The position numbers and the translations under genes are program-made. The notes beneath the pieces are model-generated. The model saw only the letters and a program-made list of their open reading frames with translations. It made no database searches and was not told the DNA's origin. From Candidatus Campbellbacteria bacterium GW2011_OD1_34_28 (GTDB lineage Bacteria; Patescibacteriota; Minisyncoccia; Phycocordibacterales; UBA12079): a stretch of DNA of 64,000 bases. Numbering within the stretch: the stretch's first letter is position 1; each line of letters starts with the position of its first letter. Below are positions 8,484-39,790 of this stretch, piece after piece. The stretch spans positions 357,722-421,721 of the forward strand of contig CP011215.1 of the NCBI GenBank assembly GCA_001029775.1, in the 5' to 3' direction.

Positions 8484-8800
8484 TAAAAAGGTGTAAGGAA
8501 TAAGGTATAAGTAGTAAGTGGGCGGGAAATTTGCTTCGCAAATTTCCCGCCCTGTTCGTTTCTAAATTTTAATATAATTCGTCTTTGCGAGCGAAGCGAA
8601 GCAATCCACGTCGTTCGTCGTGTTTTAAAAATTATTTCATTAAAAATTGTTTATAAATTAAAAATTATAAATTAAAAATTATAAATTAAAAATTTTAACT
8701 CCTATTTTCTAAATTCTCACTACTTACCCCTCACACCTTTCTCCTTACCCCTTACTACTTAGAGTTAATATGTTATAATCCAATTCATATAATTAAACAT
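8484..8800. repeat. Composite MITE-like repeat region with ~40-bp imperfect inverted ends
   Basis: 8492-8520 is the inverted complement of 8715-8760. Interior holds the hairpin gggcgggaaatttgc-ttcg-caaatttcccgccc, repeat family A (8581-8610) and a 14-bp AT tandem repeat x3 (8650-8695). Confidence 0.45.
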
Positions 8801-8803
8801 ATT

Positions 8804-10222
8804 ATGGAAAAATATAAAGCTACAATCGGTTTGGAAATCCACGCGGAATTAAAGACAAAGACAAAGATGTTTTGTGATTCCAAGAATGATCCAGACGAAA
8901 CAAAACCCAATGTAAACATTTGTCCTGTGTGTATGGCACATCCAGGGACTTTGCCTGCGATAAATAAAACCGCGGTAAAAAGTGTTTTGAAAGTCGGACT
9001 GGCATTGAATGGAAATTTGGCAGATTTTACAGAATTTGATAGGAAAAATTATTTTTATCCAGATATTCCAAAAGGTTATCAGATCAGTCAGTACAAATAT
9101 CCTCTTGTTTCAGGAGGAGAATTAAACGGGGTTAAAATTACCCGTGTTCACCTAGAAGAAGATACCGCTAGATCTAGTCACGACACAGCTGGGCACAGTT
9201 TGGTTGATTACAACAGAGCAGGTATTCCGTTGATGGAATTGGTTACAGAACCTGTCGTAGAAAATGCACAACAAGCAAGAGACTTTGCAAAAGAATTGCA
9301 ACTTCTTTTGCGATATTTGGGAGTAGCAGAAGCAAACATGGAAAAGGGGGAGATGAGAATAGAGGCAAATATTTCTGTTAGCGATACTGAAAATTTTGGA
9401 ACAAAGGTAGAGGTAAAAAATCTCAACTCTTTCAAGGTGGTTGAAAAAGCGATTGAGTATGAAATAAAAAGACAGATAGAAGCAATTGAAAATGGAGAAA
9501 AAATAATTCAAGAGACGAGAGGTTGGGACGAGAACGGACAAAAAACTTTTTCACAAAGAATGAAAGAGGGTTCTGCTGATTACCGATATTTTCCTGACCC
9601 AGATTTACCAAAATTAAAAATAAGCGAGATACCAGAATTTTCAAAAGAAAATTTGAAAAAAGAAATTTCAGAATTGCCAAAAGAAAAAAGAGAAAGATAC
9701 ACAAAAGATTATGGAATCAAATCAGAGGATTTGGAGATGTATGTTACTGACAGCGAATTTGGAAATTTCTTTGAGGGAGTAGCAAAAGAATTGAAAGGGG
9801 ATAGAGACTTGATCAAGCTTGCTTCAAATTATATTACATCGGATGTTGTAGGATTGAAAAAAGATTCTTCAGTAATTGGGTTTGGAAAAATTGAAATAAG
9901 TACTTTTGCAGAATTGATAAAAATGGTCGGAGAAGGAAAAATTTCTTCTCGTGGAACAAAAGATATTTTGAAGATTATGTTTATCGAGGGAGGTGCTCCA
10001 AACGAGATAGCTGAGAAAAATAATTTACTTCAAAAGAGTGATGAGGGAGAGTTGGAAAAAATTGTTTTGAAAATAATTGAAAACAACAAAACGGTTGCTG
10101 ATGAATTTAGATCAGGCAAAGAAAGCTCTCTGCAATTTTTGATTGGGCAGGGGATGAAAGAAACGAAAGGATCCGCCAACCCAAAAATCCTAACAGGTCT
10201 ATTCAAGAAAAATTTGAAATAA
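8804..10222 (+). CDS. gatB: Asp/Glu-tRNA(Asn/Gln) amidotransferase subunit B
   Basis: GLEIHAEL..., CPVCMAHPGTLP; 472 aa. Confidence 0.93.
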   Translation: MEKYKATIGLEIHAELKTKTKMFCDSKNDPDETKPNVNICPVCMAHPGTLPAINKTAVKSVLKVGLALNGNLADFTEFDRKNYFYPDIPKGYQISQYKYPLVSGGELNGVKITRVHLEEDTARSSHDTAGHSLVDYNRAGIPLMELVTEPVVENAQQARDFAKELQLLLRYLGVAEANMEKGEMRIEANISVSDTENFGTKVEVKNLNSFKVVEKAIEYEIKRQIEAIENGEKIIQETRGWDENGQKTFSQRMKEGSADYRYFPDPDLPKLKISEIPEFSKENLKKEISELPKEKRERYTKDYGIKSEDLEMYVTDSEFGNFFEGVAKELKGDRDLIKLASNYITSDVVGLKKDSSVIGFGKIEISTFAELIKMVGEGKISSRGTKDILKIMFIEGGAPNEIAEKNNLLQKSDEGELEKIVLKIIENNKTVADEFRSGKESSLQFLIGQGMKETKGSANPKILTGLFKKNLK

Positions 10223-10344
10223 TTTGATATAACGAATCCGATCCACCCGTCTTTGCGAGCGACAGCGAACTTCGGATTTTTTAGGCAAAAAATTCGGAGC
10301 AATAAATCTAGATTTGTAATTTGTAACTTACAATATAAAATCAA

Positions 10345-10635
10345 ATGAGAGAAAAAACCGCCTATGTTTATATAATGGCAAGTAAGAAAAACGGAACATT
10401 GTATACGGGCGTAACATCTAATTTAGAAAAAAGAGTTTGGGAACACAAAAATAATATTGTAAAAAGTTTTACACAAAAATACAATGTTCACAATTTAGTT
10501 TATTTTGAATTCGGAGAAAATATTTTATCTGCGATAGAAAGAGAGAAACAAATTAAAAGTGGCTCTAGAAAAAAGAAAATAGAATTGATTGAAAAAGATA
10601 ATCCTGAATGGAATGATTTATCAAAAAACTTTTGA
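10345..10635 (+). CDS. GIY-YIG nuclease family protein (96 aa)
   Basis: YVYIMAS..GTLYTGVTSNLEKRVWEHK GIY...YIG motif. Confidence 0.8.
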   Translation: MREKTAYVYIMASKKNGTLYTGVTSNLEKRVWEHKNNIVKSFTQKYNVHNLVYFEFGENILSAIEREKQIKSGSRKKKIELIEKDNPEWNDLSKNF

Positions 10636-11165
10636 TGACGTGGATCGCGTCGGCTTCGCCTCGCGAAGACGATCCGCACGAACAACGTGGACCTGCCTCT
10701 TTTCTGAAAGAAAAGCAACGACACGGCGAGGCAGGTTGTTTCATTGCGTTCGCAATGACAAATTTCTAAAAGAAATTTGTCACCTTCGTCGTCATTGCGA
10801 GCGTAGCGAAGCAATCCATCATGAACTGTTTGTCCGAAATTAATGGACGTGGACCTGCCTGCCGGCGAGGCAGGTCGCTTCGGCTTCGCCTCGCGAAGAC
10901 GACCCGCACGAACAACGTGGACCTGCCTGCCGGCAGGCAGGTCGCTTCGTCGCTTCGTTGCACTCCGCTTCTCGCGAAGACGAAGCCACGTCGTCATTGC
11001 GAGCGTAGCGAAGCAATCCAGGACGACGAACAACTCAAAATAAACGACGTGGATTGCTTCACTTCGTTCGCAAAGACGGAATTTCTCAAAACGAAATTCC
11101 GTCACCTTCGTCGTCATTGCGAGCGTAGCGAAGCAATCCATAACAACTCGGTCTTGCAAAGAAAA
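10636..11165. repeat. Dense cluster of nested palindromic repeats (families A, B, C); non-coding
   Basis: Three forward copies of cgtcgtcattgcgagcgtagcgaagcaatcca (10788, 10990, 11110) plus an inverted copy at 11045. A 48-bp unit is duplicated (10650/10880). cctgcctgccggcaggcagg palindromes. Irregular spacing. Confidence 0.75.
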
Positions 11166-11347
11166 ATTACTTTTTTGTTGTTCTAATTTTCAAAAAATAA
11201 AAAGTTATCCACATTTAAAAATATACTATTTTTCGTAGTCTAAAAAACCTATATTTTAAGCCATCTCGTTTAGACGAGATAAATTAAAATAAGGGTTTTT
11301 TGACGGTGAATTTTTTCAAATAAAAAGTTATTATTATAGTAATAGAG

Positions 11348-14300
11348 ATGAGGGAAGAAATTATTTTAAATAGTAAAAAATTTCTCTCACTGAAAACTGC
11401 TGCGAGAGAAACAAACTATACCAATGACTACATTGGTCAGCTTTGTCGTTCAGGCAAAATCAATTCTCAAATGGTAGGAAAAATTCGTTTTGTGGAAGAA
11501 GATTCCTTGCTTGAATATGTTAAAAAAGCGAATGGTTTTGTAGATATAAAATATGCAGATATTGAAAATATTGCTATCAAAAATAACAAGGATCTCGGCG
11601 ATTTCTCGTCTGTACGAGATACTGATTTTGCTCATTTCCGTCAAGACAAAGCCAACAGTTTGTATGTAAACATTTTTGAAACAGTTTTCTCTAAAAAAGT
11701 AGTTCATGTCTATATCGCAATACTTGTTTTGTGTGGATTGTTTTTTGGTAGTACTTTGGACATACAAGGAGGTTTTGCAAAAATAAAAAATAAATCTGCC
11801 GAAGGATTGGCAAAAATTGTCATGGGAGCAAAAGTGGCGTCTGACAAAATTTCGGAAACGACATTAGCTGTTGCAAATGGCGAGATTGATTACGAAAAAG
11901 TTTATAAAAATTACTCAAATTTTTTAGGAGAGATGTCCGTTGATTTTGCCGAAGGTGAAGTAAAGTATTTCAAAAATGTTACTGGTGTAGGTAGCAAAGT
12001 AACCGAAGCAATTTTTAATCCAAGCGATACTTTTGTAACAGTTAAAACAGAGACAAAAAAAATTCAGGGAAGTGTAGAAGAAATAATTTTTGGTGGTGTG
12101 ATTTATTTTGAAAATCTTTCTACTAATTTAATTCGTGTAAATGAAAAAATTTCTCAAAATGGTTTTGCACAAGAAAAAAATTTGGCATTGTTGAGTCAAG
12201 ACAGTTTTGGATTTACAGAAAAATTTGCAATTACTTGGTATAGAACGATATCAGGTTTTTTTAGTTCCGCTGAAAAAATAGCCGACAGCACGGACGAAGC
12301 TGACAGCGGACAGCTAACAACCAACAGCACAGACGAAGACGACTCGTCCGTCTTTGCGAGCGATAGCGAAGTAATCCAGGAAGAAGACGAAGCCAACAGC
12401 CAACAGCCAACAGCTAACAGCACGAACCAAAACACAACCATCGTTACAAACCCAATCAGAGAAATCATAAAAGAAACCGTTGTAGAAAGAGTTATCCAAA
12501 CATCAGGCGTCACACTGGAAGATCTACAAAAACTAAACAACGAACTCCGAAGTGAAATCTACAAACTCTCATCAAATACAAATGCTCAAATCACCAACAC
12601 CTACCAAGTCATCTCTGCTACTAACAACATCGACAATCTGGGTAGTGTCACAATCACCGACTCAAACATCAGTTCCTCAAATGTCTCAGGAACAGAACTA
12701 AGCTTTACCAACGGAACAATTCAAAACCTAACTGTCACAGGCACAGCTACCTCTACATACGGTGGCCCTATTTCTGCAACCAGTGGAACATACTCTGGCA
12801 ATCTAACCGTAACAGGCAACACCACTCTAAACACTCTTACCGTATCAGGAGACACAATCTTTGACACAGACACTCTTTACATCGATTCAATCAACAACCG
12901 TGTAGGCATCGGATCAACAACACCCACAGATACTCTTTCAATAAACGGAGCAACATACCTTGCACCAATATCAGCTCCATCAATCACAACCGACAGACTT
13001 TACAACATCTCCAATGATTTATACTGGGGTGGTAATCTTTTATCAGGTTCTGCCGTTGGTAATTGGACATCCAACGGAACAGATGTTTGGAGAGCATCAG
13101 GAAATGTGGGTATCGGCACATCATCACCATCTTCAGATTACAGACTATCTGTTCAAGGTAACACTTACATCAAAGGTAATCTTAGGGTAAACGGAAATAC
13201 TACAATTTCAGATAGCGGAGAATTAACAGTCGGAGACAAAGTTATCTCAGAAGGAGAAATCGGAGTTGGAACATCTTCTCCCTATGCCAAACTATCTATC
13301 CAAGGAACAACTGTTTCCACAACCACTTTTGGTATCTATGGTTTTGCAAATCAAACACAGTCTCTCTTTGATGTATATGACAATCCTACGAATAATTTAA
13401 ATGTGTTTAGAATCACGAGTGATGGCAGCGTCGGTATCGCTACATCATCACCTTTTAGAAAGTTGAGTGTAGAAGGTAGTGCGTGGATTAGTGGAGACTT
13501 AACAGCCAACAGTTTCACTGCTACTTCTTCAATGAGCGCTCCTTACTTTACTGCAACAGACTCAAGTGCAACAAGTACTTTTGCAGGAGGCTTGGCTGTT
13601 GGAACAAACAAATTTGTTGTTGATTATTCTACGGGAAATGTGGGGGTGGGGACGGTGAGTCCGGATCAAAAATTGGATGTAAATGGCTGGGGTCGTTTTG
13701 AGGGGGCTGGGTCTACAAATCGTAGTGATTCTGGTGCAATAGAGTTTTATAACAATAATGCTTCATCTCTTAATGTGCAAGCTCAAATAAAGGGTCTACG
13801 AGGTATAGGTTCATATAATTCTGGTCAATTGGGATTTTTCACTAGACTAGCGGGTACACTTTATGAGCGAATGACACTAGATGAAAACGGCAACGTCGGC
13901 ATTGGGACGATGGTGCCGGGATATAAATTGGATATTGCTGGTTCTGTGGCAGCCCCGACGACTTTACTTGTCCAAGCAGGAGGCATAACTGAAAATACTG
14001 GGAATGCTTTTCGTGTTTATAGAAACAGAGCTTCCTCTTCTACAAACGCTCCGTTAGTAGATTTTATAAATGATGCAGCAACGGATGACCAGCCACTTTT
14101 TAGACTTCAACAAGATGCACCAGCTGATATTCTCCAAGTTTTTGATGGAGCAACTCAAGTGTTTACAATCCTAGACGGCGGCAACGTCGGGATCGGCACC
14201 ACTTCACCTCTCGCAAAACTATCTGTCAAAGGAGCAGGAACAACCACAGGCATAAACTTCCAAACAACCAATTCGGCTGACACTCCGTTGGTGACTGTTT

Positions 14301-17300
14301 TGGATAGTGGGAATGTGGGAATTGGGACGGTGAGTCCGGGAGCGAAGCTTGAAGTTTTTGGCGACATGATAATAGGAGACGTGACGAATGGAAGCGTTTT
14401 TAGATATAATCCAACCACGAACACGATTGTGAACGGTGCACATGAAAATAGTATAGGTGTTGGTTCCTCAAATTCTATAATAGCTGCAGGAGGAGCTACT
14501 GCAAGTTCTAATATCAATAGTATTGGAACTGATTCTTACGTGACTACGATTAGTGGTGGATACGATAACACAATTGGAAATGACTCTCCTGCCGCAACTA
14601 TCAGCGGGGGTGCTCACCATCGAATAGATACAGGAGGAACACATGGAACAATAGGTGGTGGATCAACCAACACCATACAGGCCGGCGGAGATTATGGTTT
14701 CATTGGAGCAGGATTGAGTAATATTGTTGGAGGCACATATGCGTTCATAGGAGCAGGAAGCAACAATGTGGCTACAGGATTTAGATCTGCCGTCATGGGA
14801 GGTTATTCTAATGATGCAACGGGTCAATATGCCACCATTCCTGGCGGTTGGGGTAATGCCGCATCGGGTGATTATTCTTTTGCTTTCGGTTATAGGGCGA
14901 ATGCTGCCGCGACTGGCGTGGTTGTATTCAAAGATTCAGTAAACGCGCAATATACGGTTAATACAACTAATATGTTTGGAGCGAATTTCACAGGTGGTTA
15001 TCAGTTGCTCGGTGGTAACGTCGGCATCGGCACCACCTCACCTTTCGCAAAACTCTCTGTCAAAGGAGCAGGAACAACCACAGGTGTAAACTTCCAAACA
15101 ACCAATTCGGCTGATACTCCGTTGGTGACTGTTTTGGATAGTGGGAATGTCGGTATTGGGACGACGAATCCTGGAGCAATGTTGGAGTTATCTTCTATAA
15201 GTATTAATGGTTCAGTTTTACGTTTATCTAATAATAATAATACAATTGCCCAAGGTGAAGAATTAGGAAGTATAGAATTTTTTAGTGGAGATAATAGTGG
15301 TTCTTACCCAGATACAGTAAAAGCAAAGATTTTATCTCTCACTGAAGATTCTGTAAGTCGTGATGGAAATCTAGTTTTCAAAACTTCACTTTTGTCTGAT
15401 GCCTCACCAGTAGAAAGAATGAGAATAAATAGTAATGGCAACGTCGGCATTGGTTCCACCTCACCTTTTGCAAAACTATCCGTCAAAGGAGCGGGAACAA
15501 CCACAGGGATAAACTTCCAAACAACCAATTCGGCTAACACTCCTTTGGTGACTGTTTTGGATAGTGGAAATGTTGGTATTGGGACGACAGCGCCTAGTGA
15601 AAAATTAGAAGTTGCTGGAAATATTTTGTTATGGAATAGTGTCAATGATAATACATTAAGATTTAAAGATAATAATGTCGCTCACGGATTAACTGACCTT
15701 GTTTCTACATATATACATACTGAATTAAGAAATGAAGATGTGTCAGCAGGAGGAACAAGACTATTGGGGGTTACTGATCAGGATCTTGCCTCAGGAATTA
15801 ATTTGTATGGAGTGTTGGGTGTGACTGACCCAACTGATACTGTTCCTGCAATTAAAATTAATGGGGCAAAGAAAAACACTACTAATGTGCAATCTCTTGG
15901 AAACTTAGAAACAGTTTTTCAGGTTCAAAATAATACTTCCCCGTTATTGACTTTATTGGGAAATGGCAACCTCGGTATCGGCACCACCTCACCTTTTGCA
16001 AAACTTTCCGTCGTCGGAGATGTTGTTGCCGACTATTTCAACGCAACTTCAACCACAGCAACATCAACATTCGCTGGCGGTTTAACAGTGGGAACAAACA
16101 AGTTGGTGGTGGATAGGAGTACGGGCAACGTCGGAATCGGGACGGCGAGTCCGAGTCAAATGTTATCAGTTGGCGCAAGCAGTCAGTTTACGGTTACTTC
16201 AGCAGGTGTCGTAACCGGACAAAATTTTGCAGTAACCAGTGGGGCTTATGTAATAGATGTCAGTAACGGTTTAAGGTTGTATTCAAATGGTGGTCTGGGA
16301 ATAAAATTTACGACTTGGGATGGCAGCTATGTTGATAGGATGGTCGTTTCAACAACAGGTAACATCGGCATCGGCACCACTTCACCTTTTGCAAAACTTT
16401 CAGTAACAGGAACCGGAACAGGCACTGGCTCGGCTTTTCAAGTTGCCGATTCTGCCAACTCACCAAAATTTACTGTTTTGGATAATGGGAATGTGGGGGT
16501 GGGGACGGTGAGTCCGACTCAAAAATTAGACGTTAATGGAAATATTCATTTAGGATCCAGCGTTGATGATTTAACAACGAGAAATATATATTTGGCCTCC
16601 AATCGTTATTTAAGCCTTACTTCTACAGGGCTAGATGTTTCGAACTGGTATGGTTCCGATGGCAGCGCTCATAAAGTTGGGTTTAATGGGAAAGAAGTAT
16701 TGGTGGTTGGATCTAACGGAATTGTTGCTATAGGCAATAATATTAATGGCGGTCCTGGTGATTACATGCCTCTTGTTTTACAGGGAAATGAATCGGGCGA
16801 TGTATTAATTAAAAGCGATCAATATCAATGGGGCGTTGATACGCGTCCAATAAGAATAATTACAGATGACCCCTATGCCAATACCGGACAGACTTTAAAT
16901 GCTGGAAATATAGTTCTTCAAACAGGAATAGGGACAAATGGAGGAGCAACAGGAATAATAAAATTTGAAATTGGTGCATCTGGTTCTGAAAAAATGCGAA
17001 TTGACACTTCTGGCAACATCGGCATCGGCACCACCACCCCATGGAGAACTCTTTCCGTAAACGGAACAGCTGCTTTCACCGGTCTAACCAACGACGGAAC
17101 AGGTTATTACGCTTGTATATCAACCAACGGAGAACTAGCCACATCAACAACCGCTTGTGGAGCATCGTCAGAAAGATTTAAAACAAACATAAATGATCTA
17201 ACATACGGTCTAGACACAGTCCTTCAACTACGCCCTGTATCTTTCAACTGGAAATCAGACTTTATCAATTCTTCTTCAACTCAAATCGGATTTATTGCAG

Positions 17301-18079
17301 AAGAAGTTGATTTGTTAATCCCAGAAGTCATCGGACACGATGACAAAGGTAACATCATGAACCTTGATTATCCAAAGTTGACGGCGGTCTTGGTAGGTGC
17401 AATGAAAGAACTTAATACAAAAATCTCGGCTATTGCTTCTTCGACCCCAATCGTCTCAACAGGAATTGTTGATTCCGTTCTATCTCATCTAGAAAGTTTG
17501 GGTGCAAAATTTGTTGACGGTATTGCTTACTTCAAAGATGTTGTCGTAAAAACTTTGACAGCAGAAAAGGTTATCACAAATGGAATTGAGATGGTGGACG
17601 AAGTAACAGGAGAAATATATTGTGTGAGAATTCAAAACGGAGCGATGGTTAATATTGCGGGAACTTGTGATACAGCTAATAGCCAACAGCCAACAGCAGA
17701 ACCTTCAAACACCACTCCTCCCACAATAACAATCACAGGCAACAACCCAGCCGTAGTAGAAATAAACAGCAACTATATTGATCTAGGTGCTACAGCAGTA
17801 GACTATCAAGGAAACTCTCTAATAGTAGATACAATAGACGCAGATACAGTAGACACAACAACAGCAGGAGAATACACAGTTACTTACACAACATTTGATG
17901 GAACACTGACTTCAACAAGTACAAGAACAGTACTTGTTGAAGATTCAACAGCTGTAACAACAGAACCAGCAACGACAACAGAGCCAACAGCAACGACAAC
18001 AAATCCTGTGGTAGAACCGACAGCTACGACGACAGATCCAGTGGTAGAACCGACAGCGACAACGACAGAGCAGATTTAA
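11348..18079 (+). CDS. Giant (2243 aa) membrane-anchored fibre-like surface protein. Order: N-terminal HTH-like segment, TM helix, many GNVGIGTTSPxAKLxV and Hep_Hag-like beta-roll repeats, peptidase-S74 intramolecular chaperone domain, C-terminal Ig-like (DUF5011-type) domain and Thr/Pro-rich tail.
   Basis: Single uninterrupted ORF. The S74 motif is SSERFKTNINDL...PVSFNWKS...GFIAEEV...PEVI...DYPKLTAVLVGAMKELN. The Ig-like motif is ITITGNNPAVVEINSNYIDLGATAVDYQGN...GEYTVTYT. Confidence 0.85.
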   Translation: MREEIILNSKKFLSLKTAARETNYTNDYIGQLCRSGKINSQMVGKIRFVEEDSLLEYVKKANGFVDIKYADIENIAIKNNKDLGDFSSVRDTDFAHFRQDKANSLYVNIFETVFSKKVVHVYIAILVLCGLFFGSTLDIQGGFAKIKNKSAEGLAKIVMGAKVASDKISETTLAVANGEIDYEKVYKNYSNFLGEMSVDFAEGEVKYFKNVTGVGSKVTEAIFNPSDTFVTVKTETKKIQGSVEEIIFGGVIYFENLSTNLIRVNEKISQNGFAQEKNLALLSQDSFGFTEKFAITWYRTISGFFSSAEKIADSTDEADSGQLTTNSTDEDDSSVFASDSEVIQEEDEANSQQPTANSTNQNTTIVTNPIREIIKETVVERVIQTSGVTLEDLQKLNNELRSEIYKLSSNTNAQITNTYQVISATNNIDNLGSVTITDSNISSSNVSGTELSFTNGTIQNLTVTGTATSTYGGPISATSGTYSGNLTVTGNTTLNTLTVSGDTIFDTDTLYIDSINNRVGIGSTTPTDTLSINGATYLAPISAPSITTDRLYNISNDLYWGGNLLSGSAVGNWTSNGTDVWRASGNVGIGTSSPSSDYRLSVQGNTYIKGNLRVNGNTTISDSGELTVGDKVISEGEIGVGTSSPYAKLSIQGTTVSTTTFGIYGFANQTQSLFDVYDNPTNNLNVFRITSDGSVGIATSSPFRKLSVEGSAWISGDLTANSFTATSSMSAPYFTATDSSATSTFAGGLAVGTNKFVVDYSTGNVGVGTVSPDQKLDVNGWGRFEGAGSTNRSDSGAIEFYNNNASSLNVQAQIKGLRGIGSYNSGQLGFFTRLAGTLYERMTLDENGNVGIGTMVPGYKLDIAGSVAAPTTLLVQAGGITENTGNAFRVYRNRASSSTNAPLVDFINDAATDDQPLFRLQQDAPADILQVFDGATQVFTILDGGNVGIGTTSPLAKLSVKGAGTTTGINFQTTNSADTPLVTVLDSGNVGIGTVSPGAKLEVFGDMIIGDVTNGSVFRYNPTTNTIVNGAHENSIGVGSSNSIIAAGGATASSNINSIGTDSYVTTISGGYDNTIGNDSPAATISGGAHHRIDTGGTHGTIGGGSTNTIQAGGDYGFIGAGLSNIVGGTYAFIGAGSNNVATGFRSAVMGGYSNDATGQYATIPGGWGNAASGDYSFAFGYRANAAATGVVVFKDSVNAQYTVNTTNMFGANFTGGYQLLGGNVGIGTTSPFAKLSVKGAGTTTGVNFQTTNSADTPLVTVLDSGNVGIGTTNPGAMLELSSISINGSVLRLSNNNNTIAQGEELGSIEFFSGDNSGSYPDTVKAKILSLTEDSVSRDGNLVFKTSLLSDASPVERMRINSNGNVGIGSTSPFAKLSVKGAGTTTGINFQTTNSANTPLVTVLDSGNVGIGTTAPSEKLEVAGNILLWNSVNDNTLRFKDNNVAHGLTDLVSTYIHTELRNEDVSAGGTRLLGVTDQDLASGINLYGVLGVTDPTDTVPAIKINGAKKNTTNVQSLGNLETVFQVQNNTSPLLTLLGNGNLGIGTTSPFAKLSVVGDVVADYFNATSTTATSTFAGGLTVGTNKLVVDRSTGNVGIGTASPSQMLSVGASSQFTVTSAGVVTGQNFAVTSGAYVIDVSNGLRLYSNGGLGIKFTTWDGSYVDRMVVSTTGNIGIGTTSPFAKLSVTGTGTGTGSAFQVADSANSPKFTVLDNGNVGVGTVSPTQKLDVNGNIHLGSSVDDLTTRNIYLASNRYLSLTSTGLDVSNWYGSDGSAHKVGFNGKEVLVVGSNGIVAIGNNINGGPGDYMPLVLQGNESGDVLIKSDQYQWGVDTRPIRIITDDPYANTGQTLNAGNIVLQTGIGTNGGATGIIKFEIGASGSEKMRIDTSGNIGIGTTTPWRTLSVNGTAAFTGLTNDGTGYYACISTNGELATSTTACGASSERFKTNINDLTYGLDTVLQLRPVSFNWKSDFINSSSTQIGFIAEEVDLLIPEVIGHDDKGNIMNLDYPKLTAVLVGAMKELNTKISAIASSTPIVSTGIVDSVLSHLESLGAKFVDGIAYFKDVVVKTLTAEKVITNGIEMVDEVTGEIYCVRIQNGAMVNIAGTCDTANSQQPTAEPSNTTPPTITITGNNPAVVEINSNYIDLGATAVDYQGNSLIVDTIDADTVDTTTAGEYTVTYTTFDGTLTSTSTRTVLVEDSTAVTTEPATTTEPTATTTNPVVEPTATTTDPVVEPTATTTEQI

Positions 18080-18084
18080 TATAA

Positions 18085-18395
18085 TCCGAATGCCTCGAAT
18101 TAGAATCCGAATGCCCCGAATTTCGAATTAATCCGAATTATTAGGAATAAAATTCGTCTTCGCGAGCGAAGCGAAGCGATCCAGAACGACGAACGAACGC
18201 CGTGGATTGCTTCGGACTTCGTCCTCGCAAAGACGGACGGAAGACGAAGTTGGGCAAAGCCCAACTTCGTCAACGAATTTTCTTTCAGAAAATTCGGATG
18301 ATTCGGCAATTCGGAGCACCTGCCTGCCGGCAGGCAGGTTAGGATATAATTTGTAGTATTCGGATTATATTAAAAAATTAAAATTTAACAAAAAA
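18085..18395. repeat. Nested palindromic repeat cluster (AATCCGAAT/ATTCGGATT arms, inverted family-A pair, family-C palindrome)
   Basis: The inverted partners are visible in the sequence. The ORFs called here run through the repeats. Confidence 0.7.
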
Positions 18396-19459: not shown

Positions 19460-19545
19460 GTTTTTAGTTTTTAGTTTTTGCGAAGCAAAATTCGTCACAC
19501 TCGTCGTCTTTGCGAACCGAAGGTGAAGCAATCCAGAAATTAATC
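19460..19545. repeat. Family-A-related repeat (tcgtcacactcgtcgtctttgcgaaccgaaggtgaagcaatccag)
   Basis: Sequence match to the repeat core. Confidence 0.6.
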
Positions 19546-21508: not shown

Positions 21509-21527
21509 GACTGGGTCCGACCCAGTC
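21509..21527. repeat. Perfect hairpin gactgggtc-c-gacccagtc, copy 1 (upstream of RAYT gene)
   Basis: Identical copies at 21728-21746 and 22230-22248. Confidence 0.8.
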
Positions 21528-21549
21528 TCACTGTGTTAAAATAAAAAAC

Positions 21550-22251
21550 ATGAGAAGAAAAGTACTATTTGTAAACGGAGAATTTTATCATATCTTTAAT
21601 AGGGGAACAGATAAAAGAAACATATTTTCGGATAAAAATGATGCATTTAGATTTCTTGAAAGTATCGAAGTTTTTAATAATATTGAAGCCGGCAATAATA
21701 TCTTTCGCACTCATAGATTGAAAAATGGACTGGGTCCGACCCAGTCTAATCCAGAGAAGATAGAGAAAAAAGAACCAATAGTGAATATTATTTGTTATTG
21801 TTTAAATTCAAATCATTATCATTTTATATTGGAACAATTAGTTGATGGTGGAATAAGTGAATTTATGAAGAGGCTAGGAGGTGGCTATACTTGTTATTAT
21901 AATGAAAGACATAAAAGATCGGGGGTATTATTTCAGGGTAAGTTCAAAGCTGCTCATATAAAATCAAATGAACAATTATTGCGCCTTAGTTCTTATGTGA
22001 ATTTGAACAATAAAGTCCATCAAAAATTTGATAAATATAAAAAAAATTTCCTTGATTTGATTGCAAATAGATCAAGTTGGGAAGAATATATTAAAAAAGA
22101 TAATAAATACAGTATTTGCAAAAAAGATATCATTTTAGGACAATTTAAAAACAGAGAAGATTATAGAAAAAATGCCGAAGATGTGATAAAAGAAATTAAA
22201 GAAATGAGGTATGGGGAAGAAGTAAACTCGACTGGGTCCGACCCAGTCTAA
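21550..22251 (+). CDS. IS200/IS605-family HUH transposase, REP-associated tyrosine transposase (RAYT)-like
   Basis: EFYHIFNRG..IF, HUH motif NHYHFIL, GYTCYYNERHKRSGVLFQGKFKA..LSSYVNLNN; flanked by identical hairpins. Confidence 0.7.
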   Translation: MRRKVLFVNGEFYHIFNRGTDKRNIFSDKNDAFRFLESIEVFNNIEAGNNIFRTHRLKNGLGPTQSNPEKIEKKEPIVNIICYCLNSNHYHFILEQLVDGGISEFMKRLGGGYTCYYNERHKRSGVLFQGKFKAAHIKSNEQLLRLSSYVNLNNKVHQKFDKYKKNFLDLIANRSSWEEYIKKDNKYSICKKDIILGQFKNREDYRKNAEDVIKEIKEMRYGEEVNSTGSDPV

Positions 22252-24261: not shown

Positions 24262-24264
24262 TTT

Positions 24265-24435
24265 TAGCAACTAGCAACTAGTTTTTAGCAAACGAATGAC
24301 GACGTGGATTGCTTCGTTACACTCGCAAAGACGGATTTTGCGAAGCAAAATCCGTCACAAATTTTCTTTGGAAATTCGTCTTTGCGAACGAAGTGAAGCA
24401 ATCCACGATAGTTTCTAAAAACTAAAAACTAATAT
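24265..24435. repeat. Inverted pair of family-A repeats flanking the hairpin gacggattttgcgaagcaaaatccgtc
   Basis: gacgtggattgcttcg...cgaagtgaagcaatccacg. Confidence 0.75.
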
Positions 24436-24439
24436 TATT

Positions 24440-25424: not shown

Positions 25425-25525
25425 GCACATAGCGTATAGCGTGTAGCGTGTAGGGAACGAATTTTGCCTTTGGCAAAATTCGTTCAAAACCTATACCCCA
25501 TACCCTAAACGCTATACGCTAAAAA
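25425..25525. repeat. Family-D palindrome: TAG-rich heptamer arms (agcgtatagcgtgtaggg / ccctaaacgctatacgct) around a GC hairpin
   Basis: Arms are mutual inverted complements. Central hairpin is gaacgaattttgcc-tttg-gcaaaattcgttc. Related copies at 26700-26745, 41640-41730, 50700-50785. Confidence 0.7.
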
Positions 25526-26699: not shown

Positions 26700-26790
26700 T
26701 TTAAGGTTAGGGTTTAGCGTATAGGAGACAAATTTTGCCAAAGGCAAAATTTGTCTTTGCGAGTGAAACGAAGCAATCCATAATCAAAAA
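26700..26790. repeat. Family-D arm, hairpin and family-A repeat
   Basis: ggttagggtttagcgtatagg...caaattttgccaaaggcaaaatttg...ttgcgagtgaaacgaagcaatcca. Confidence 0.65.
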
Positions 26791-27845: not shown

Positions 27846-27926
27846 GTAATTAGTATATAGTATATAGTTTTTAGTTTCTAGTGTTGGGGTTGGGGACTAT
27901 GGGTAAACCTCAATTGTTTGTGTTTA

Positions 27927-27972
27927 TAAAAATTACGAAATTTACGCGACCGCGTAAATTTCGTAATTTTTA
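27927..27972. repeat. 46-bp perfect palindrome AAAATTACGAAATTTACGCGACCGCGTAAATTTCGTAATTTT (family P)
   Basis: Identical copy at 28617-28663; in divergent promoter region between the PfkB gene and ORF 28000. Confidence 0.85.
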
Positions 27973-27999
27973 TTTTTAAAGTTATAATATGACATATAT

Positions 28000-28616: not shown

Positions 28617-28663
28617 CAAAAAATTACGAAATTTACGCGACCGCGTAAATTTCGTAATTTTTT
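28617..28663. repeat. Second identical copy of the family-P palindrome
   Basis: Exact match to 27927-27972. Confidence 0.85.
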
Positions 28664-32719: not shown

Positions 32720-32736
32720 TTAATTTTTTTAAAAAA

Positions 32737-32766
32737 CCCACGCGATAATCGCGCGGGTTTTTTATT
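32737..32766 (+). terminator. Rho-independent terminator cccacgcg-ataatc-gcgcggg + T-run
   Basis: Stem-loop then TTTTTTATTTTTT. Confidence 0.6.
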
Positions 32767-32812
32767 TTTTACACCCTTTTCTCAAAAAGAGAAAAAAGTT
32801 ATAATAAAGGTA

Positions 32813-34195: not shown

Positions 34196-34240
34196 TAAAT
34201 TAAAGGTCTAGAATTGTAAATTTTAAATTTTAAATTAAAA

Positions 34241-34686: not shown

Positions 34687-34700
34687 TGTAATTTAAATTT

Positions 34701-35493: not shown

Positions 35494-35542
35494 AGTTGTT
35501 CATATTTGCTTAGAAATTAACTTTGTGATATAAATACTGGGT

Positions 35543-35758
35543 ATGAAAAAAGATATTCATCCAAAATACAATTCAGAAGCATCAGTAATTTGTGCTTGCG
35601 GAAACAAATTTACAATAGGATCTACTCAAGACAAGATTGAAGTGGAAATTTGTAGTGCCTGCCATCCTTTCTACACAGGAAATGAAAAAGTTATGGATAC
35701 TGCGGGAAGAGTGGATAAATTTAAAAAGAGAGTGGAAGCAGCTAAAAAATCAAAATAA
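35543..35758 (+). CDS. rpmE: 50S ribosomal protein L31
   Basis: MKKDIHPKY...CxC...[10 protein letters not shown]. Confidence 0.9.
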
Positions 35759-35763
35759 AAAAA

Positions 35764-35790
35764 CTCGCCATTGGCGAGTTTTTTTATTTT
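35764..35790 (+). terminator. Rho-independent terminator ctcgcc-attg-gcgag + T7
   Basis: Stem-loop with T-run. Confidence 0.6.
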
Positions 35791-35866
35791 GATTTTTTAG
35801 CTAGTAGCAAGGATTGAGTAGTAAGTAATAAGTTAAAAAATTTGCTTTGCAAAATTTTTTACGTTT

Positions 35867-36853
35867 TTGTACTTGATACTTACTACTTACTACTCTATAC
35901 TAATTCCTATGGATTTAAATAAATTTAAAGAAAATCAAAAGACAAGTTTTTTGGCGGGAGAATATGAAAGACTTGAAAGAGAAGAAAAAAACATCGATGA
36001 GATGCTTTCTTTGGATTTATCAATGAAAGATCTTGTTGAAGAAGAAAAAAATAATTTGAAAATTCAGAAAGACGCAATATTGAAACAGATGGAAGAGATT
36101 GTTTCTCAGGAAGAAAAAGAAGAAAAATTTCCCAACGAAATTATTATGGAAATTAGAGCAGGAGCAGGGGGGGACGAAGCCTCGTTGTTTGCTCAGAATT
36201 TGGCTGAAATGTATGAAAAATATGCAATAAAAAGAGGGTGGCAACTTAAGAAAACAGAGGAATCTTTGGGGACTATGGGCGGTTACAAAGAAGTTATTTT
36301 TGAGATCAAAGGATTGGATGTATACAAAGATTTGAGATTTGAAAATGGAGTTCACCGAGTACAGAGAATTCCTGTAACTGAAAAGCAGGGGAGAATTCAC
36401 ACCTCAACATCTTCAGTAATGATTCTTCCAATGAGAAAAAAAACCAAGTTTGTTATTGATCCATCTGATATAGAGATGGAACTTTCTCGTTCTGGTGGTG
36501 CTGGTGGTCAAAATGTTAACAAAGTTGAAACAGCTGTTCGTCTTATTCACAAACCAACAGGAATTGATGTTCGATGTACTTCGGAAAGGAGTCAGTTGAA
36601 AAACAGAGAAAAAGCAATGTCTATCTTGGTCGCAAAATTGGAACAAAAGAAAGACGAGGAAGATATGGCAAAAATTTTGGAAGAGAGAAGTCAACTGGTT
36701 GGTACGGGGGATCGATCTGAAAAAATTAGAACATACAATTATCCACAAGATCGAATTACAGATCATAGACTGAAAGAGTCTTGGTCAAATATAGAGAATA
36801 TATTGAATGGTGATTTACAGCCAATAATTGACGAATTTAAAGATTTAAAATAA
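35867..36853 (+). CDS. prfA: Peptide chain release factor 1
   Basis: PVT tripeptide ([14 protein letters not shown]), GGQ motif ([11 protein letters not shown]); true start may be MDLNKF at ~35909. Confidence 0.88.
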
Positions 36854-36865
36854 ATTTTTCTTTTG

Positions 36866-36894
36866 TTGCAAAATGACCCTTAATTTGGTAGTAT
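36866..36894 (+). promoter_or_regulatory. Sigma70-like promoter TTGCAA-17-TAGTAT upstream of rpsB-tsf, followed by GC-rich structured 5'UTR
   Basis: -35/-10 spacing 17; ~85-nt leader before rpsB. Confidence 0.45.
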
Positions 36895-36983
36895 CTTTGG
36901 GTATGCGGGTTCTGTCAAAGAAGTGCTTTGATGGGCGAGAGCCGTAAGAATCCAAATTTATTAAATAAGAAAGTAAGAAAATA

Positions 36984-37706
36984 ATGGAAAATATAATTGA
37001 TAAAATGTTTAAAGTGGGTGCCCACTTTGGGTATTCAAAGACAAAAAGACATCCTTCTGTAAAGAAGTTTATTTTTGGTGCAAAAAATAGAGTAGAAATT
37101 TTTGATTTGGAGAAGACGGTTAAATCTTTGGAAGATACAAAAATTTTTGTAAGAGATTTGGCTTCTTCAGGAAAACAAATTCTTTTTGTTTCAAGCAAAA
37201 GCGAAGCAAAAGAGGCTGTTGAAATAGGGGCTTCATCAATCGGTGCTCCTTTTGTTGCAGGAAGATGGATTGGAGGAACTTTGACCAATGCAACAGAAAT
37301 AAGAAAAAGAGTAAGTAAATATCAAAAATTATTGAATGACAAAGACAAAGGACTTTTGACAAAATATACCAAAAAAGAAAGATTGCTTATTGATAGAGAC
37401 ATAGAAAAATTGTCAAGAAAATTCTCAGGATTGACTAGCTTGGAAGGAATGCCCTCAGCTTTGTTTGTAGTTGACCCTAAAAAAGAAGAAATTGCTGTAA
37501 AAGAAGCTTTTGAAAAAAATATACCTGTAATTGCTCTTGCAAACTCAGATTGTAATATTAAAGGAATTAAATATCCTATCGCTGCAAATGACTCATCAAG
37601 ATCAAGTATTCAATTTTTTGTGGATGAAATAGTAGGTGCTTACAATGAAGGAAAGAAAAATGCTCCTAAGAAAGTTGTAGAAGACAAAAAAGAAATCAGA
37701 AAATAA
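36984..37706 (+). CDS. rpsB: 30S ribosomal protein S2
   Basis: FKVGAHFGYSKTKRHP... Confidence 0.95.
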   Translation: MENIIDKMFKVGAHFGYSKTKRHPSVKKFIFGAKNRVEIFDLEKTVKSLEDTKIFVRDLASSGKQILFVSSKSEAKEAVEIGASSIGAPFVAGRWIGGTLTNATEIRKRVSKYQKLLNDKDKGLLTKYTKKERLLIDRDIEKLSRKFSGLTSLEGMPSALFVVDPKKEEIAVKEAFEKNIPVIALANSDCNIKGIKYPIAANDSSRSSIQFFVDEIVGAYNEGKKNAPKKVVEDKKEIRK

Positions 37707-37804
37707 TTATTAACAAAGCCAATAGCCAATAGCTGGTAGCAAAAAAATTCCAAGGGAAATTTTTTGCCTTAAACTATAAGCTATAAGCTATAAGCTAAAA
37801 TATT

Positions 37805-38383
37805 ATGGTTACAATAGATCAAATTAAAGAATTAAGAGAAAAGACCGGAATCTCAATCGGTCAATGTAAAAAAGCCCTAGAAGAAGCAGGGGGTGATATA
37901 GAAAAAGCCGTAGTTATTCTAAGTAAAAAAGGAGGAGACTTTGCTGCAAAAAAATCAGACAGAATGTTAAAATCAGGAACTATTGCAACTTATGTTCACA
38001 GCAATGGAAAAGTTGGTTCTATGGTGGAGCTTTTGTGTGAAACAGATTTCGTTGCTAAGAACGAAGAATTCACTAAATTGGCTTATGATATTGCTATGCA
38101 AATAGCTGCAACAAATCCAACTTTTGTGAAAAAAGAAGAGATCACAGAAGATGACAGACAAAAAGCAATTGCAGTTTTTGAAGAAGAGGTAAAAGACAAG
38201 CCGACTGAAATGAGAGAAAAGATTTTGGAAGGGAAAATAAATTCATATTTCAAGGACAAGGTTTTGACAGAGCAAGACTTTATCAAAAATCCAGAAAGTA
38301 CAATCAGTAAACTTATTGAAGGGGCTGTTCATAAATTTGGTGAAAGAATGGAAATAGGCAAGTTTGTTAGATTTCAACTCTAA
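37805..38383 (+). CDS. tsf: Elongation factor Ts (short form)
   Basis: IKELREKTGISIGQCKKALEEAGGDIEKA UBA-like N-terminus. Confidence 0.92.
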   Translation: MVTIDQIKELREKTGISIGQCKKALEEAGGDIEKAVVILSKKGGDFAAKKSDRMLKSGTIATYVHSNGKVGSMVELLCETDFVAKNEEFTKLAYDIAMQIAATNPTFVKKEEITEDDRQKAIAVFEEEVKDKPTEMREKILEGKINSYFKDKVLTEQDFIKNPESTISKLIEGAVHKFGERMEIGKFVRFQL

Positions 38384-38399
38384 GCTATAATTATAGATT

Positions 38400-38780
38400 A
38401 TGATAACTACGTCATTTATAATTTCCTTGAGTTTGTTAGCTTTGTTGTTTGGTCTAAAAATTTTTGAAACCAAAACAAACAAAGTAATCATTTCCAAGGA
38501 AATTTTAGATAAGAGTGATGATAAATTGAAGCAATTCTTTATTTATATTTTTCGTCATTATAAAAAATTCTTGTTTGAAGTTTATAAATTACCTAAATTT
38601 TTTGAAGAAATAAAAAAAGATTTGAAGAAATTTTTTGCAACAAAAAGAGACAGAATCGCGACAAAAGTAATCAGAGCTTTGAATATTCACAACATCAAAG
38701 ACATTGATAGAAATAGAGGATCGGTGTCTCTTTTTTTAAGGACAATTTCCGAAGAAAAGGAGAGAAACAAAGGGTTGTAA
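38400..38780 (+). CDS. Hypothetical membrane protein
   Basis: N-terminal TM helix; Lys-rich; no family recognised. Confidence 0.4.
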   Translation: MITTSFIISLSLLALLFGLKIFETKTNKVIISKEILDKSDDKLKQFFIYIFRHYKKFLFEVYKLPKFFEEIKKDLKKFFATKRDRIATKVIRALNIHNIKDIDRNRGSVSLFLRTISEEKERNKGL

Positions 38781-38810
38781 TTTTTTCATAATAATATATA
38801 ATTTTTTATC

Positions 38811-38884
38811 AGTTGGTAGTTGGTAGTTGGTAGTTGGTAGTTGGTAGTTGGTAGTTGGTAGTTGGTAGTTGGTAGTTGGTAGTT
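38811..38884. repeat. Heptanucleotide microsatellite (GTTGGTA)x~10 abutting the tRNA 5' end
   Basis: Unit matches the tRNA D-loop sequence cagttggtag. Confidence 0.85.
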
Positions 38885-38957
38885 GCCATCTTAGCTCAGT
38901 TGGTAGAGCAACGGTTTTGTAAACCGTAGGTCCTCGGTTCGAATCCGAGAGATGGCT
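38885..38957 (+). tRNA. tRNA-Thr (anticodon UGU)
   Basis: Cloverleaf: acceptor gccatct/agatggc, D-arm gctc-agttggtag-agc, anticodon stem acggt/accgt with loop tttgtaa, T-arm ctcgg-ttcgaat-ccgag. Confidence 0.85.
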
Positions 38958-39147
38958 CAGAAAAAGTTTACAGTTAACAGTAAACAGTTTACAGTAACAA
39001 AAAAATCCCTGCGGGGATTTTTTGTTTGTTGCTCTAACGACTGAGCTAGCTCAGTAGGATAAAAAGCAAACTGCTTTGCTTTTTATCCGGTTTTTGCTTT
39101 AGCAAAAAATTTCCGTTATCGAGTGAAGCGAGATAGGAAATAGGTGG

Positions 39148-39181
39148 GAGAGCAACGGTTTTGTAAACCGTAGGTCCTCGG
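39148..39181 (+). other. Partial duplicate of tRNA-Thr (D-stem 3' strand through T-stem 5' strand)
   Basis: agagcaacggttttgtaaaccgtaggtcctcgg identical to the intact tRNA; remaining T-loop/acceptor piece at 39483-39498 beyond the GIY-YIG gene. Confidence 0.6.
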
Positions 39182-39224
39182 CCCGCCCAGCACTCAATTT
39201 TATTTTTTTTGATATAATTTTTGC

Positions 39225-39473
39225 ATGTACTATTTTTATGTTTTAAAAAATAATGAGAATGAATTATATTATGGTTCAACGAGTGATATCAAAAAAAGAA
39301 TTTTTGAACATAATAATAACCGCTCAATTTCTACTAAAGGAAAAACTTGGAAATTAATTTATTACGAAGCATATTTATTTGAAGATGATGCCCGTAATCG
39401 TGAGCATCAAATTAAGCATCACGGACAAGCAAAGAGGTGGTTGAAAGAGAGAATCAAAAATTCTTTGAAATAA
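39225..39473 (+). CDS. GIY-YIG nuclease family protein (82 aa) inserted in tRNA-Thr duplicate
   Basis: YYFYVLKN..ELYYGSTSDIKKRIFEHNN; flanked by inverted cccagcactcaatttt / aaattgagtgctggg. Confidence 0.8.
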   Translation: MYYFYVLKNNENELYYGSTSDIKKRIFEHNNNRSISTKGKTWKLIYYEAYLFEDDARNREHQIKHHGQAKRWLKERIKNSLK

Positions 39474-39575
39474 AATTGAGTGCTGGGTTAAAATCCGAGA
39501 GATGGCTCAGAAAAAGTTTACAGTTAACAGTAAACAGTTTACAGTAACAAAAAAATCCCTGCGGGGATTTTTTTG

Positions 39576-39790
39576 TTTTGAATGAGACGAAGTTTCGTCC
39601 GTCTTTGCGAGGTACGAAGCAATTCACGACGGACGTGGATCGCTTCACTATTGTTCGCGAAGACGGAATTTCGCAAAGCGAAATTCCGTTCGACCCGTCC
39701 GTCATTGCGAGCGGTAGCGAAGCAATCCACAAAAACTGTTTAGATTTTGTTTTTTTAGGGCTTAGTGATGTTTTCAACACATGAATCTTT
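39576..39790. repeat. Family-A repeat cluster (forward, inverted, forward copies plus the hairpin gacggaatttcgcaaagcgaaattccgt)
   Basis: Direct sequence match to the repeat consensus. Confidence 0.75.

Follow-up and report, generated by a model that had tools for sequence, protein, structure and literature searches.

A 64,000-nucleotide stretch of DNA from Candidatus Campbellbacteria bacterium GW2011_OD1_34_28 (contig CP011215.1, positions 357,722 to 421,721 of the forward strand), in the following called the window, carries a family of short hairpin units that start with the tag CGTC and end with the tail CCA. In the midst of these units lies ssn, a gene predicted to encode a 96-amino-acid single-domain GIY-YIG nuclease. 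The genes of the window are nearly all encoded on the + strand, and it opens with a ribosomal-protein operon that has secY and gatB at its end.

Hairpin units and their arrangement in the window

Nine matches to the core TTGCGAGCGWAGCGAAGCAATCCA with up to three mismatches are present in the window, while 100 shuffles returned none. A profile built from these nine matches, with copies accepted at E <= 0.012, identified 20 unit copies, all located within 8577-39732, at a chance expectation of zero. Every copy was inspected, yielding the consensus CGTC-(A/T)TTGC-GA-[2-4-bp stem, GNA or 4-nt loop]-GAA-GCAAT-CCA with a length of ~30 nt. In an alignment of 13 window units, 12 start with CGTC and one (26752) with TGTC, and all 13 end with ATCCA. 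The units, the nuclease gene and one free-standing palindrome are arranged along the window as follows.

8580-8608, + strand: single unit CGTCTTTGCGAGCGAAGCGAAGCAATCCA, 97 nt past the secY stop codon (profile 45.5 bits)
10248-10303, + strand: unit upstream of ssn, CGTCTTTGCGAGCGACAGCGAA..GCAAT, split at 10270-10298 by a 29-nt hairpin and with the tail AAA instead of CCA; its 5' half was found by the profile (E 0.0013)
10345-10635, + strand: ssn, gene for a 96-amino-acid single-domain GIY-YIG nuclease (Pfam PF01541, 56.7 bits)
10641-10671, - strand: unit directly 3' of ssn (- strand sequence CGTCTTCGCGAGGCGAAGCCGACGCGATCCA), which represents the 'empty' form relative to the next two - strand units
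10740-10759, - strand: short variant GTCATTGCGAACGCAATGAAA (profile E 4e-4)
10790-10818, + strand: unit CGTCATTGCGAGCGTAGCGAAGCAATCCA
10850-10901, - strand: unit with the nested palindrome CCTGCCTGCCGGCGAGGCAGG (10854-10874) between TGGA and TCGC
10918-10982, - strand: unit with the nested palindrome CCTGCCTGCCGGCAGGCAGG (10922-10941)
10992-11020, + strand: unit, tail-to-tail with 11050-11078
11050-11078, - strand: unit, tag-to-tag with 11112-11140, with the hairpin GGAATTTCTCAAAACGAAATTCC in between (-28.8 kcal/mol, z -6.9)
11112-11140, + strand: unit within a 41-nt stretch, 11101-11141, that is repeated identically at 10779-10819
12349-12378, + strand: intragenic unit within the open reading frame (ORF) 11348-18079, in-frame peptide SVFASDSEVIQ (profile 28.9 bits)
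18155-18183, + strand: unit whose basal stem is compensated (TCGC/GCGA), forming a tail-to-tail pair with 18203-18235
18203-18235, - strand: unit with the 4-bp apical stem GGAC/GTCC (-6.6 kcal/mol), 89% identical over 53 nt to a unit that follows a similar large-protein gene in another Campbellbacteria locus (L324)
18319-18338: free-standing palindrome CCTGCCTGCCGGCAGGCAGG
19505-19535, + strand: single unit between the genes of GAPDH and a LamG protein, apical stem ACC/GGT
24305-24405: tag-to-tag composite of a - strand unit (24305-24333), two small hairpins and a + strand unit (24377-24405) (-34 to -36 kcal/mol, z -6.9 and -8.6)
26752-26780, + strand: single unit with a TGTC tag, the tag being the end of the hairpin GACAAATTTTGCCAAAGGCAAAATTTGTC
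39600-39729: cluster of a + strand unit (39600-39626), a - strand unit (39636-39665), the hairpin GACGGAATTTCGCAAAGCGAAATTCCGT and a + strand unit (39700-39729) (-35 kcal/mol, z -4.3)

The units are found as singles, in inverted pairs and mixed with other palindromes into mosaics, mostly 26-97 nt downstream of a stop codon. Four of them are isolated (8580, 12349, 19505 and 26752), all showing CGTC...CCA on the + strand. Tail-to-tail pairs are formed at 10992/11050, 18155/18203 and 39600/39636, and tag-to-tag pairs at 11050/11112, 24305/24377 and 39636/39700, the latter enclosing one or two AT-rich hairpins with stems ending in the CGTC tags. The sequence-only reading of this DNA had already described such a repeat, and all coordinates listed there carry a unit copy, including the one at ~12352 inside a coding sequence, which is in frame within a gene for a 2,243-amino-acid surface protein. 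Inverted pairs that enclose a second hairpin, likewise reported there, are present at 11050-11140, 24305-24405 and 39636-39729. The units are indeed GC-rich compared to the background (53% versus 35% G+C for the window), and they dominate the composition locally. Other statements were too broad. Instead of occupying nearly every intergenic gap larger than 100 bp, units are present in only ~8 of ~34 gaps of at least 100 bp in a crude gene map from which spurious ORFs were removed by eye. The label genome-wide does not fit either, as positions 1-8500 and 39800-64000 of the window, 9.7 kb of left flank and 8.2 kb of right flank contain no copy, and the density called unusual is so for the 31-kb stretch around the nuclease gene but not beyond it.

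Each unit can be drawn with a 5-bp basal stem (A/T)TTGC:GCAAT, in which most window copies have T.T as the first pair, a 2x3 GA/GAA internal loop and an apical stem of 2-4 bp with a loop of 3-4 nt. For a set of 20 units, taken from the window and from four further genomes, 88% of the cells pair, compared to at most 53% in slid controls, and compensatory changes occur in one basal pair (TA to CG) and in both apical pairs. The apical stem appears as GC/GC, AC/GT, GT/AC, ACC/GGT, GGC/GCC or GGAC/GTCC, while the GA and GAA strands between both stems are nearly invariant. The copies vary in a structure-preserving manner despite the weak energies of the single hairpins. Folded as single-stranded DNA (ssDNA), the inverted composites are highly stable, reaching -29 to -36 kcal/mol with z = -4.3 to -8.6. 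No Rfam family was found for the window at the gathering score, nor for eight loci bearing the motif at E <= 0.1.

The repeats also give rise to spurious long ORFs. Repeat-only ORFs extend over 10500-11159 (- strand), 10821-11186 (+ strand) and 39454-39813 (- strand) with peptides such as DCFATLAMT, LLRYARNDD, HCERSEAIH and LPAGRQV, and the public gene calls for them include a 213-amino-acid 'protein' made only of repeats. The 101-nt composite at 24305-24405 is located in the spacer (24262-24439) of a split transketolase, between its N-terminal and its C-terminal half.

The ssn gene, its homologues and the distribution of the unit

The Pfam domain PF01541 spans residues 6-78 of the 96-amino-acid ssn protein. 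Its catalytic residues are intact, as Y9, Y20, R30, E67 and N86, invariant in an alignment of 26 sequences, are all kept in the window protein. Among solved structures only UPF0213 proteins come near, with weak matches (E 1e-4). The gene is nested between the + strand unit 10248-10303, which begins 26 nt past the gatB stop codon and 97 nt ahead of the ssn start codon, and the - strand unit 10641-10671, which begins 6 nt past the ssn stop codon and opens the densest cluster of the window (eight units in 500 bp). The ssn product is the putative cognate enzyme of the CGTC units.

More than 8000 homologues of the protein exist; the best 120 listed are 62-99% identical and the named ones among them originate from several phyla. 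Seven independent loci of high identity were fetched (L324, L328, L329, L330, L380, L381 and L383). Units are present on both sides of the gene in six of these and on one side in L383, and five (L324, L328, L330, L380 and L381) show the layout of the window with a + strand unit upstream and a - strand unit downstream. The ATTGC/TCGC hairpin class of the window is found in L324 (Campbellbacteria), L328 (Ferriphaselus, a betaproteobacterium), L330 (Pacebacteria), L381 and L383, and L329 (Kapabacteria) carries a sister class, GTCATTCTGAGC..GAAGAATC. In L381, a whole module TGTCATTGCGAG...CTCGCAATGACA fills the spacer between dnaK and dnaJ. In L328, a gene-less dimer nearby matches the gene-bearing module arm for arm and spacer for spacer, minus 356 nt.

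Moreover, 35 distant homologue loci from IMG/VR were analyzed (43-59% identity, tblastn E 1e-20 to 1e-32). The published pattern of the Ssn-related motifs (SRMs), introduced below, occurs within 200 nt of the gene in 18 of the 35 loci and on both sides in 13, corresponding to a density of 2.9 per kb near the gene compared to 0.028 per kb elsewhere. The remaining loci mostly show, by eye, tag or tail variants adjoining the gene. The nearest upstream unit is on the + strand in 13 of 17 distant loci and the nearest downstream unit on the - strand in 12 of 15. The sequence-only reading had pointed to GIY-YIG genes as possible partners of the repeats, and for the gene at 10345-10635 this association is supported by its place between two units as well as by its homologues across phyla.

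The L324 locus carries an ssn gene 84% identical to that of the window, in the order large surface protein, units, ssn, units, adk and map, while the order in the window is gatB, ssn, units, large surface protein, units and GAPDH. In L324, the ssn module is thus located downstream of a gene strongly similar to that of the 2,243-amino-acid protein; in the window it is located upstream. A comparison of the two gene orders places rearrangement breakpoints within unit clusters, and the CGTC units mark such breakpoints between related genomes.

The unit itself is widely distributed. The exact 23-nt core TTGCGAGCGNAGCGAAGCAATCC is present in 118 IMG/VR stretches and in at least 120 stretches of species-representative genomes, in sum more than 230 public contigs from at least eight phyla and from genomes of 30% to 69% G+C. 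Hosts include Bradyrhizobium, relatives of Sphingomonas and Methylobacterium, Micavibrio, Legionella, Coxiellaceae, Hymenobacter, Bacteroidales and Anaerolineales, furthermore Sedimentisphaerales, Fibrobacter, Chitinispirillales, Desulfobacterales and Thermoanaerobaculia. The usual form elsewhere is a tail-to-tail dimer, CGTCATTGCGAG..GAAGCAATCCAG-spacer-CTGGATTGCTTC..CTCGCAATGACG, with a variable and often self-complementary apical part. No unit was found in 788 kb of contigs from relatives within the Candidate Phyla Radiation (CPR) picked via GAPDH (55-67% identity, single metagenome scan); in the same 788 kb, a strict generic hairpin detector with a background of 0.8 per 64 kb stayed at chance level, and an Ssn profile returned one weak ORF. 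A looser detector (GTC, a 6-bp stem with one mismatch and CC) performed on real as on shuffled sequence and was replaced by the strict one. A literature search by the sequence string of the motif returned primer coincidences only.

Relation to known systems and proposed mechanism

Two bodies of literature bear on the units. CGTC-tagged repetitive extragenic palindromes (REPs) were described as elements that carry an unpaired tag (CGTC, or TGTC/CCTC), a CCA-like tail and a stem opened by A-T and T-A pairs, and which occur in five phyla mostly as inverted dimers with some in-frame intragenic copies and have no associated transposase (Di Nocera et al., 2013, BMC Genomics 14:522, PMC3733652). SsnA of Neisseria, a 94-amino-acid single-domain GIY-YIG nuclease, was shown to bind a hairpin only as ssDNA and on one strand only, and to cut just upstream of it (Chenal et al., 2025, Nat Commun 16:2388, PMC11893778). 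Its sites are the Neisseria NTS, CGTCATTCCCGCGMAVGCGGGAATCYRG, and its relatives, the SRMs; the ssn gene typically resides in an SRM-ssn-SRM layout and the system modulates natural transformation in Neisseria. Cutting specific for ssDNA is known for the Neisseria and the Wolbachia enzymes, and a mobility of Ssn modules was raised only as a hypothesis (PMC11893778). Di Nocera et al. are not cited in that study. Here, the SRMs are equated with the CGTC-tagged REPs because the layout of CGTC tag, stem and tail is common to both.

The window system resembles the Ssn/SRM system in its single-domain GIY-YIG protein of ~95 amino acids, in the nesting of the gene between inverted hairpin repeats with CGTC at the start and ATCC(A/R) at the end, in the tens of dispersed copies, which are clustered near particular genes and seldom intragenic, and in the matches to the published NTS/SRM pattern that flank the homologues with 43-59% identity. 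Homology and the defining gene context tie the window protein to the Ssn family, as a putative member of CDD family cd10448, by which Ssn is defined. The window system differs in its host, the Campbellbacteria, a CPR group absent from the main text of PMC11893778, and in that its enzyme is a predicted one. With the CGTC REPs (CGTC-1 to -4, including Neisseria dRS3-type and Rickettsia RPE-4/6 elements) the units have in common the CGTC/TGTC tag, the A/T-T stem start, the CCA tail, the predominance of inverted dimers, an occasional in-frame intragenic copy and the lack of a linked transposase gene. Moreover, Bradyrhizobium, Sphingomonas relatives, Micavibrio and Coxiellaceae carry both the window core and published CGTC families. 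In contrast to the published families, tag-to-tag pairs with extra hairpins are common in the window, and the window-class peptides LAMT, AKQS, SEAI and ARND are not in the list of intragenic REPs of PMC3733652.

Taken together, it is quite probable that the units are SRMs, i.e., CGTC-tagged REP hairpins of ssDNA that are recognized in a strand-specific manner by the GIY-YIG nuclease encoded at 10345-10635. By analogy with the Neisseria and Wolbachia enzymes, the CGTC...CCA strand would be exposed as ssDNA in replication, DNA uptake or transcription and would fold into the 5-bp basal stem, the GA/GAA internal loop and the apical stem of 2-4 bp capped by a GNA loop. The folded motif might then be bound by the nuclease, which would nick a few nucleotides 5' of the CGTC tag. 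For the unit-ssn-unit module of ~420 bp, in which ssn lies between a + strand and a - strand unit with the CCA tails pointing inward, this arrangement predicts that each outer end is nicked once, the two nicks being on opposite strands, and gene-less tail-to-tail pairs would have the same nick geometry. Such a predicted two-nick geometry is that of a small mobile element, an idea raised in PMC11893778. Gene-less copies might be non-autonomous derivatives of unit-ssn-unit modules that were subsequently reshaped by local duplication, nested palindrome insertion and recombination. Signs of turnover are the 41-nt identity between 10779-10819 and 11101-11141 and the shifted position of the ssn module relative to the large-protein gene between the window and L324. 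The units may function in the cutting of incoming or exposed ssDNA and as recombination hot spots; both this role and a mobility of the units, as well as the nuclease activity of the window ssn protein, are extrapolated from the characterized enzymes.

Several observations weigh against this assignment. The published SRM pattern HGTCWYN(0-2)YYVSBRHN(0-5)WNVSBRGN(0-2)RNCYNB has no match in the window on either strand, while the canonical NTS used as control matches; the units have tag, stem start and tail in common with the pattern but not the layout of stem and loop. The published SRMs have a continuous stem of 8-9 bp and the published CGTC families 8-9-bp stems with 4-5-nt loops, whereas the window class, with its 5-bp basal stem, GA/GAA internal loop and small variable apical stem-loop, has neither, a distinction drawn from the text of PMC3733652, Figure 2 of which may draw a related variant. 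Lone units fold weakly, with nearest-neighbor energies of -2 to -9 kcal/mol and z of +0.9 to -1.4, similar to shuffled sequences. The unit upstream of ssn is broken by the 29-nt insertion and has no CCA tail, so the window copy of the module may be inactive. Hairpins of the canonical class flank the 66%-identical homologue in L380, which means that hairpin class does not follow protein clade perfectly. Empty sites were not found: no unit differs between a filled and an empty form in the population copies, which are identical in five assemblies, the nearest other genomes being too distant. Finally, an Ssn-like ORF lies within a few kb of the motif in only 1 of 238 randomly sampled motif-bearing loci. 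This low count at first seemed to speak against the link, an impression reversed by the gene-side analysis described above; it is expected for dispersed copies but no proof that those genomes encode the enzyme.

Among other explanations, REP elements mobilized by a transposase have to be considered, as the sequence-only reading had named a REP-associated tyrosine transposase (RAYT) gene at 21.5 kb as a possible partner and REP-RAYT is the classic model for short palindromic repeats. A Y1_Tnp ORF above the Pfam threshold (21550-22251, 233 amino acids, 28 bits) is indeed present in this repeat-rich stretch, but it reaches only 21 bits with the NCBI RAYT model NF047646, the cut-off of which is 80. 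It is associated with a palindrome of its own, GACTGGGTCCGACCCAGTC, at 21509, at 21728 in frame inside the ORF and at 22230 at its 3' end, in the same orientation at all three positions, so that the whole looks like a 740-bp IS200-type unit (21509-22248). GACTGGGTCCGACCCAGTC has no exact match in IMG/VR. The profile search found no CGTC unit within 1.9 kb of the Y1 gene, tblastn revealed no Y1 homologue in the 238 motif loci, the units carry CGTC instead of the GTAG tag, and CGTC REPs were reported never to flank Y1 genes (PMC3733652). By the protein scores, the reading of the flanks and the tblastn search the RAYT link was rejected, and we regard it as very improbable. The designation of the units as elements similar to REPs and to MITEs (miniature transposable elements with inverted repeats) stands in kind, regarding CGTC tag, hairpin, CCA tail and inverted dimers, but not regarding MITE features or RAYT. 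A classical MITE of a DDE transposon was rejected as well: no DDE transposase was found in ~20 window ORFs scanned with Pfam, and no flanking direct repeats were seen by eye at isolated units. GTAG REP/REPIN-RAYT systems share with the window system short hairpins with an unpaired tag, inverted doublets, an enzyme gene flanked by its own repeats and a presumed ssDNA mechanism, but they use a GTAG tag and a HUH/Y1 enzyme where CGTC and a GIY-YIG fold are found here. IS200/IS605 elements are likewise very small, have subterminal hairpins, act on ssDNA and have gene-less copies outnumbering the gene-bearing ones. Both their end hairpins lie on the same strand, whereas the units here are inverted with predicted cuts on opposite strands. 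Assembly artefacts, i.e., collapsed or chimeric repeats, deserve hardly any credence. Metagenome assemblies can mis-join at repeats, and the unit at 8545-8592 shows an NN gap in one public assembly, but the region is 99.6-100% identical in five independently assembled places (24 contigs read; several samples, three databases), with one scaffold gap and one 14-nt tandem-repeat indel as the differences, and isolate genomes of other phyla likewise carry the motif. The window DNA is found on a 1.44-Mb scaffold (ENA ERZ28564304 scaffold_1) and in several further public assemblies, too.

The location of most copies 26-97 nt past a stop codon, the CGTC...CCA orientation of the four isolated copies on the coding strand and the very stable hairpins of the composites would suit host regulatory hairpins without a link to a nuclease, such as terminators, mRNA stabilizers or structured RNAs, and REPs affect mRNA stability in other bacteria (background in PMC3733652). 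We consider this improbable, as no T-run follows the units, lone units are thermodynamically weak, Rfam contains no matching family, an identical 23-nt core in at least eight phyla is not expected of terminators and the tight nesting of the nuclease gene between units would be left unexplained; moreover, SsnA neither bound nor cut the RNA substrate that was tested (PMC11893778). Somewhat less improbable, though still unlikely, is that ssn is a selfish homing-type gene that invaded the center of pre-existing dimers, i.e., a guest of repeats that are spread or maintained otherwise and not their source. The gene resides exactly in the spacer of tail-to-tail dimers, the GIY-YIG fold includes free-standing homing endonucleases, NCBIfam shows weak hits to a group I intron endonuclease family, and a second GIY-YIG mini-element of the window, bounded by terminal inverted repeats (TIRs), sits in the T-loop of a tRNA. 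However, the characterized Ssn enzymes cut ssDNA upstream of the hairpin, which corresponds to the outer side of the module, and not double-stranded DNA at the center of a dimer (PMC11893778), and the hairpin class largely changes along with the protein clade, which is what an enzyme and its own sites should show.

The assignment of the units to the Ssn-recognized, CGTC-tagged hairpins places a Campbellbacteria genome among the carriers of a recently found nuclease/hairpin system. The repeat class is known since 2013 and the Ssn system since 2025; new are the CPR host, a hairpin class outside the published definitions that is conserved in at least eight phyla, and its tight clustering around the nuclease gene. 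A hairpin class common to many genomes across phyla escapes the published motif pattern, so current tallies of 'SRM-free' genomes are probably inflated. Furthermore, the window provides a likely enzyme-site pair with a hairpin geometry unlike that of the four pairs tested so far, which might be useful for the toolbox of sequence-specific ssDNA cutters. A further-reaching and tentative possibility, which we hold to be rather less probable than its negation, is that the unit-ssn-unit modules are autonomous mobile elements driven by a GIY-YIG ssDNA nuclease, with gene-less dimers as miniatures, and that the ATTGC-GA/GAA class and its enzyme clade spread together by horizontal transfer in at least eight phyla, the ultra-small CPR bacteria among them. 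If true, these modules would represent a so far unproven type of mobile element without a transposase of known class.

Further palindromes, mini-elements and GC-rich islands

The palindrome that the sequence-only reading had placed next to the units, CCTGCCTGCCGGCAGGCAGG, is exact at 10922 and 18319 and occurs in a 1-nt-longer variant at 10854, but the copies at 10854 and 10922 lie within a unit, as insertions, and not just beside it. This 20-bp perfect palindrome behaves as an insertion, as the unit 10641-10671 represents the empty form and the units 10850-10901 and 10918-10982 are filled between TGGA and TCGC. It is found exactly in 35 IMG/VR stretches (L388-L422) with unrelated flanks, and judged from the flanking sequence it apparently lies inside tRNA genes in three of them, in the variable region in L389 and L412 and in the D-loop in L419.

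The TIR-bounded mini-element is part of a tRNA-Thr region. An intact tRNA-Thr(TGT) gene at 38885-38958 is followed by a terminator, and its last 29 nt together with 65 nt downstream are repeated at 39480-39573 with 96% identity. A broken copy of tRNA-Thr, with its anticodon arm at 39148-39181, is located between these repeats, and its T-loop is split by the ~300-nt mini-element. The latter consists of the TIR CCCAGCACTCAATTTT (39186-39201), an ORF for an 82-amino-acid GIY-YIG protein (39225-39473) and the TIR AAAATTGAGTGCTGGG (39472-39487); this protein might cut at or near CCCAGCACTCAA. The family of the ORF has 114 members, mostly unnamed, the named ones being Patescibacteria, and the same TIR bounds an ORF of this family at unrelated sites in L423 and L425.

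Islands of ~55-60% G+C (estimated from the sequence; 1-kb bins reach 42-44%) are located at 3500-4100, 61330-61560 and 62300-62700, the first one separating rplE from rpsN in the ribosomal-protein operon. Searches against Pfam and Rfam returned nothing for these islands (3.5-4.1 kb and 61.3-62.7 kb), and the small-ORF calls in them differ between public assemblies. Two families of AT-rich perfect palindromes, AAAAATTACGAAATTTACGCG/CGCGTAAATTTCGTAATTTTT and GGCGGGAAATTTGCTTCGCAAATTTCCCGCC, are found downstream of genes (3318-3373, 27926-27973, 28618-28663, 47794-47845; 8520-8552, 62250-62281); they look like terminators and appear unrelated to the CGTC units. Finally, the heptamer AGTTGGT is repeated in tandem in ~11 copies (period 7, 38811-38884) directly upstream of the tRNA-Thr gene, and heptamers of the TAGCGTA/TAGGGTG type build imperfect palindromes in other spacers (25430-25521, 41658-41730).

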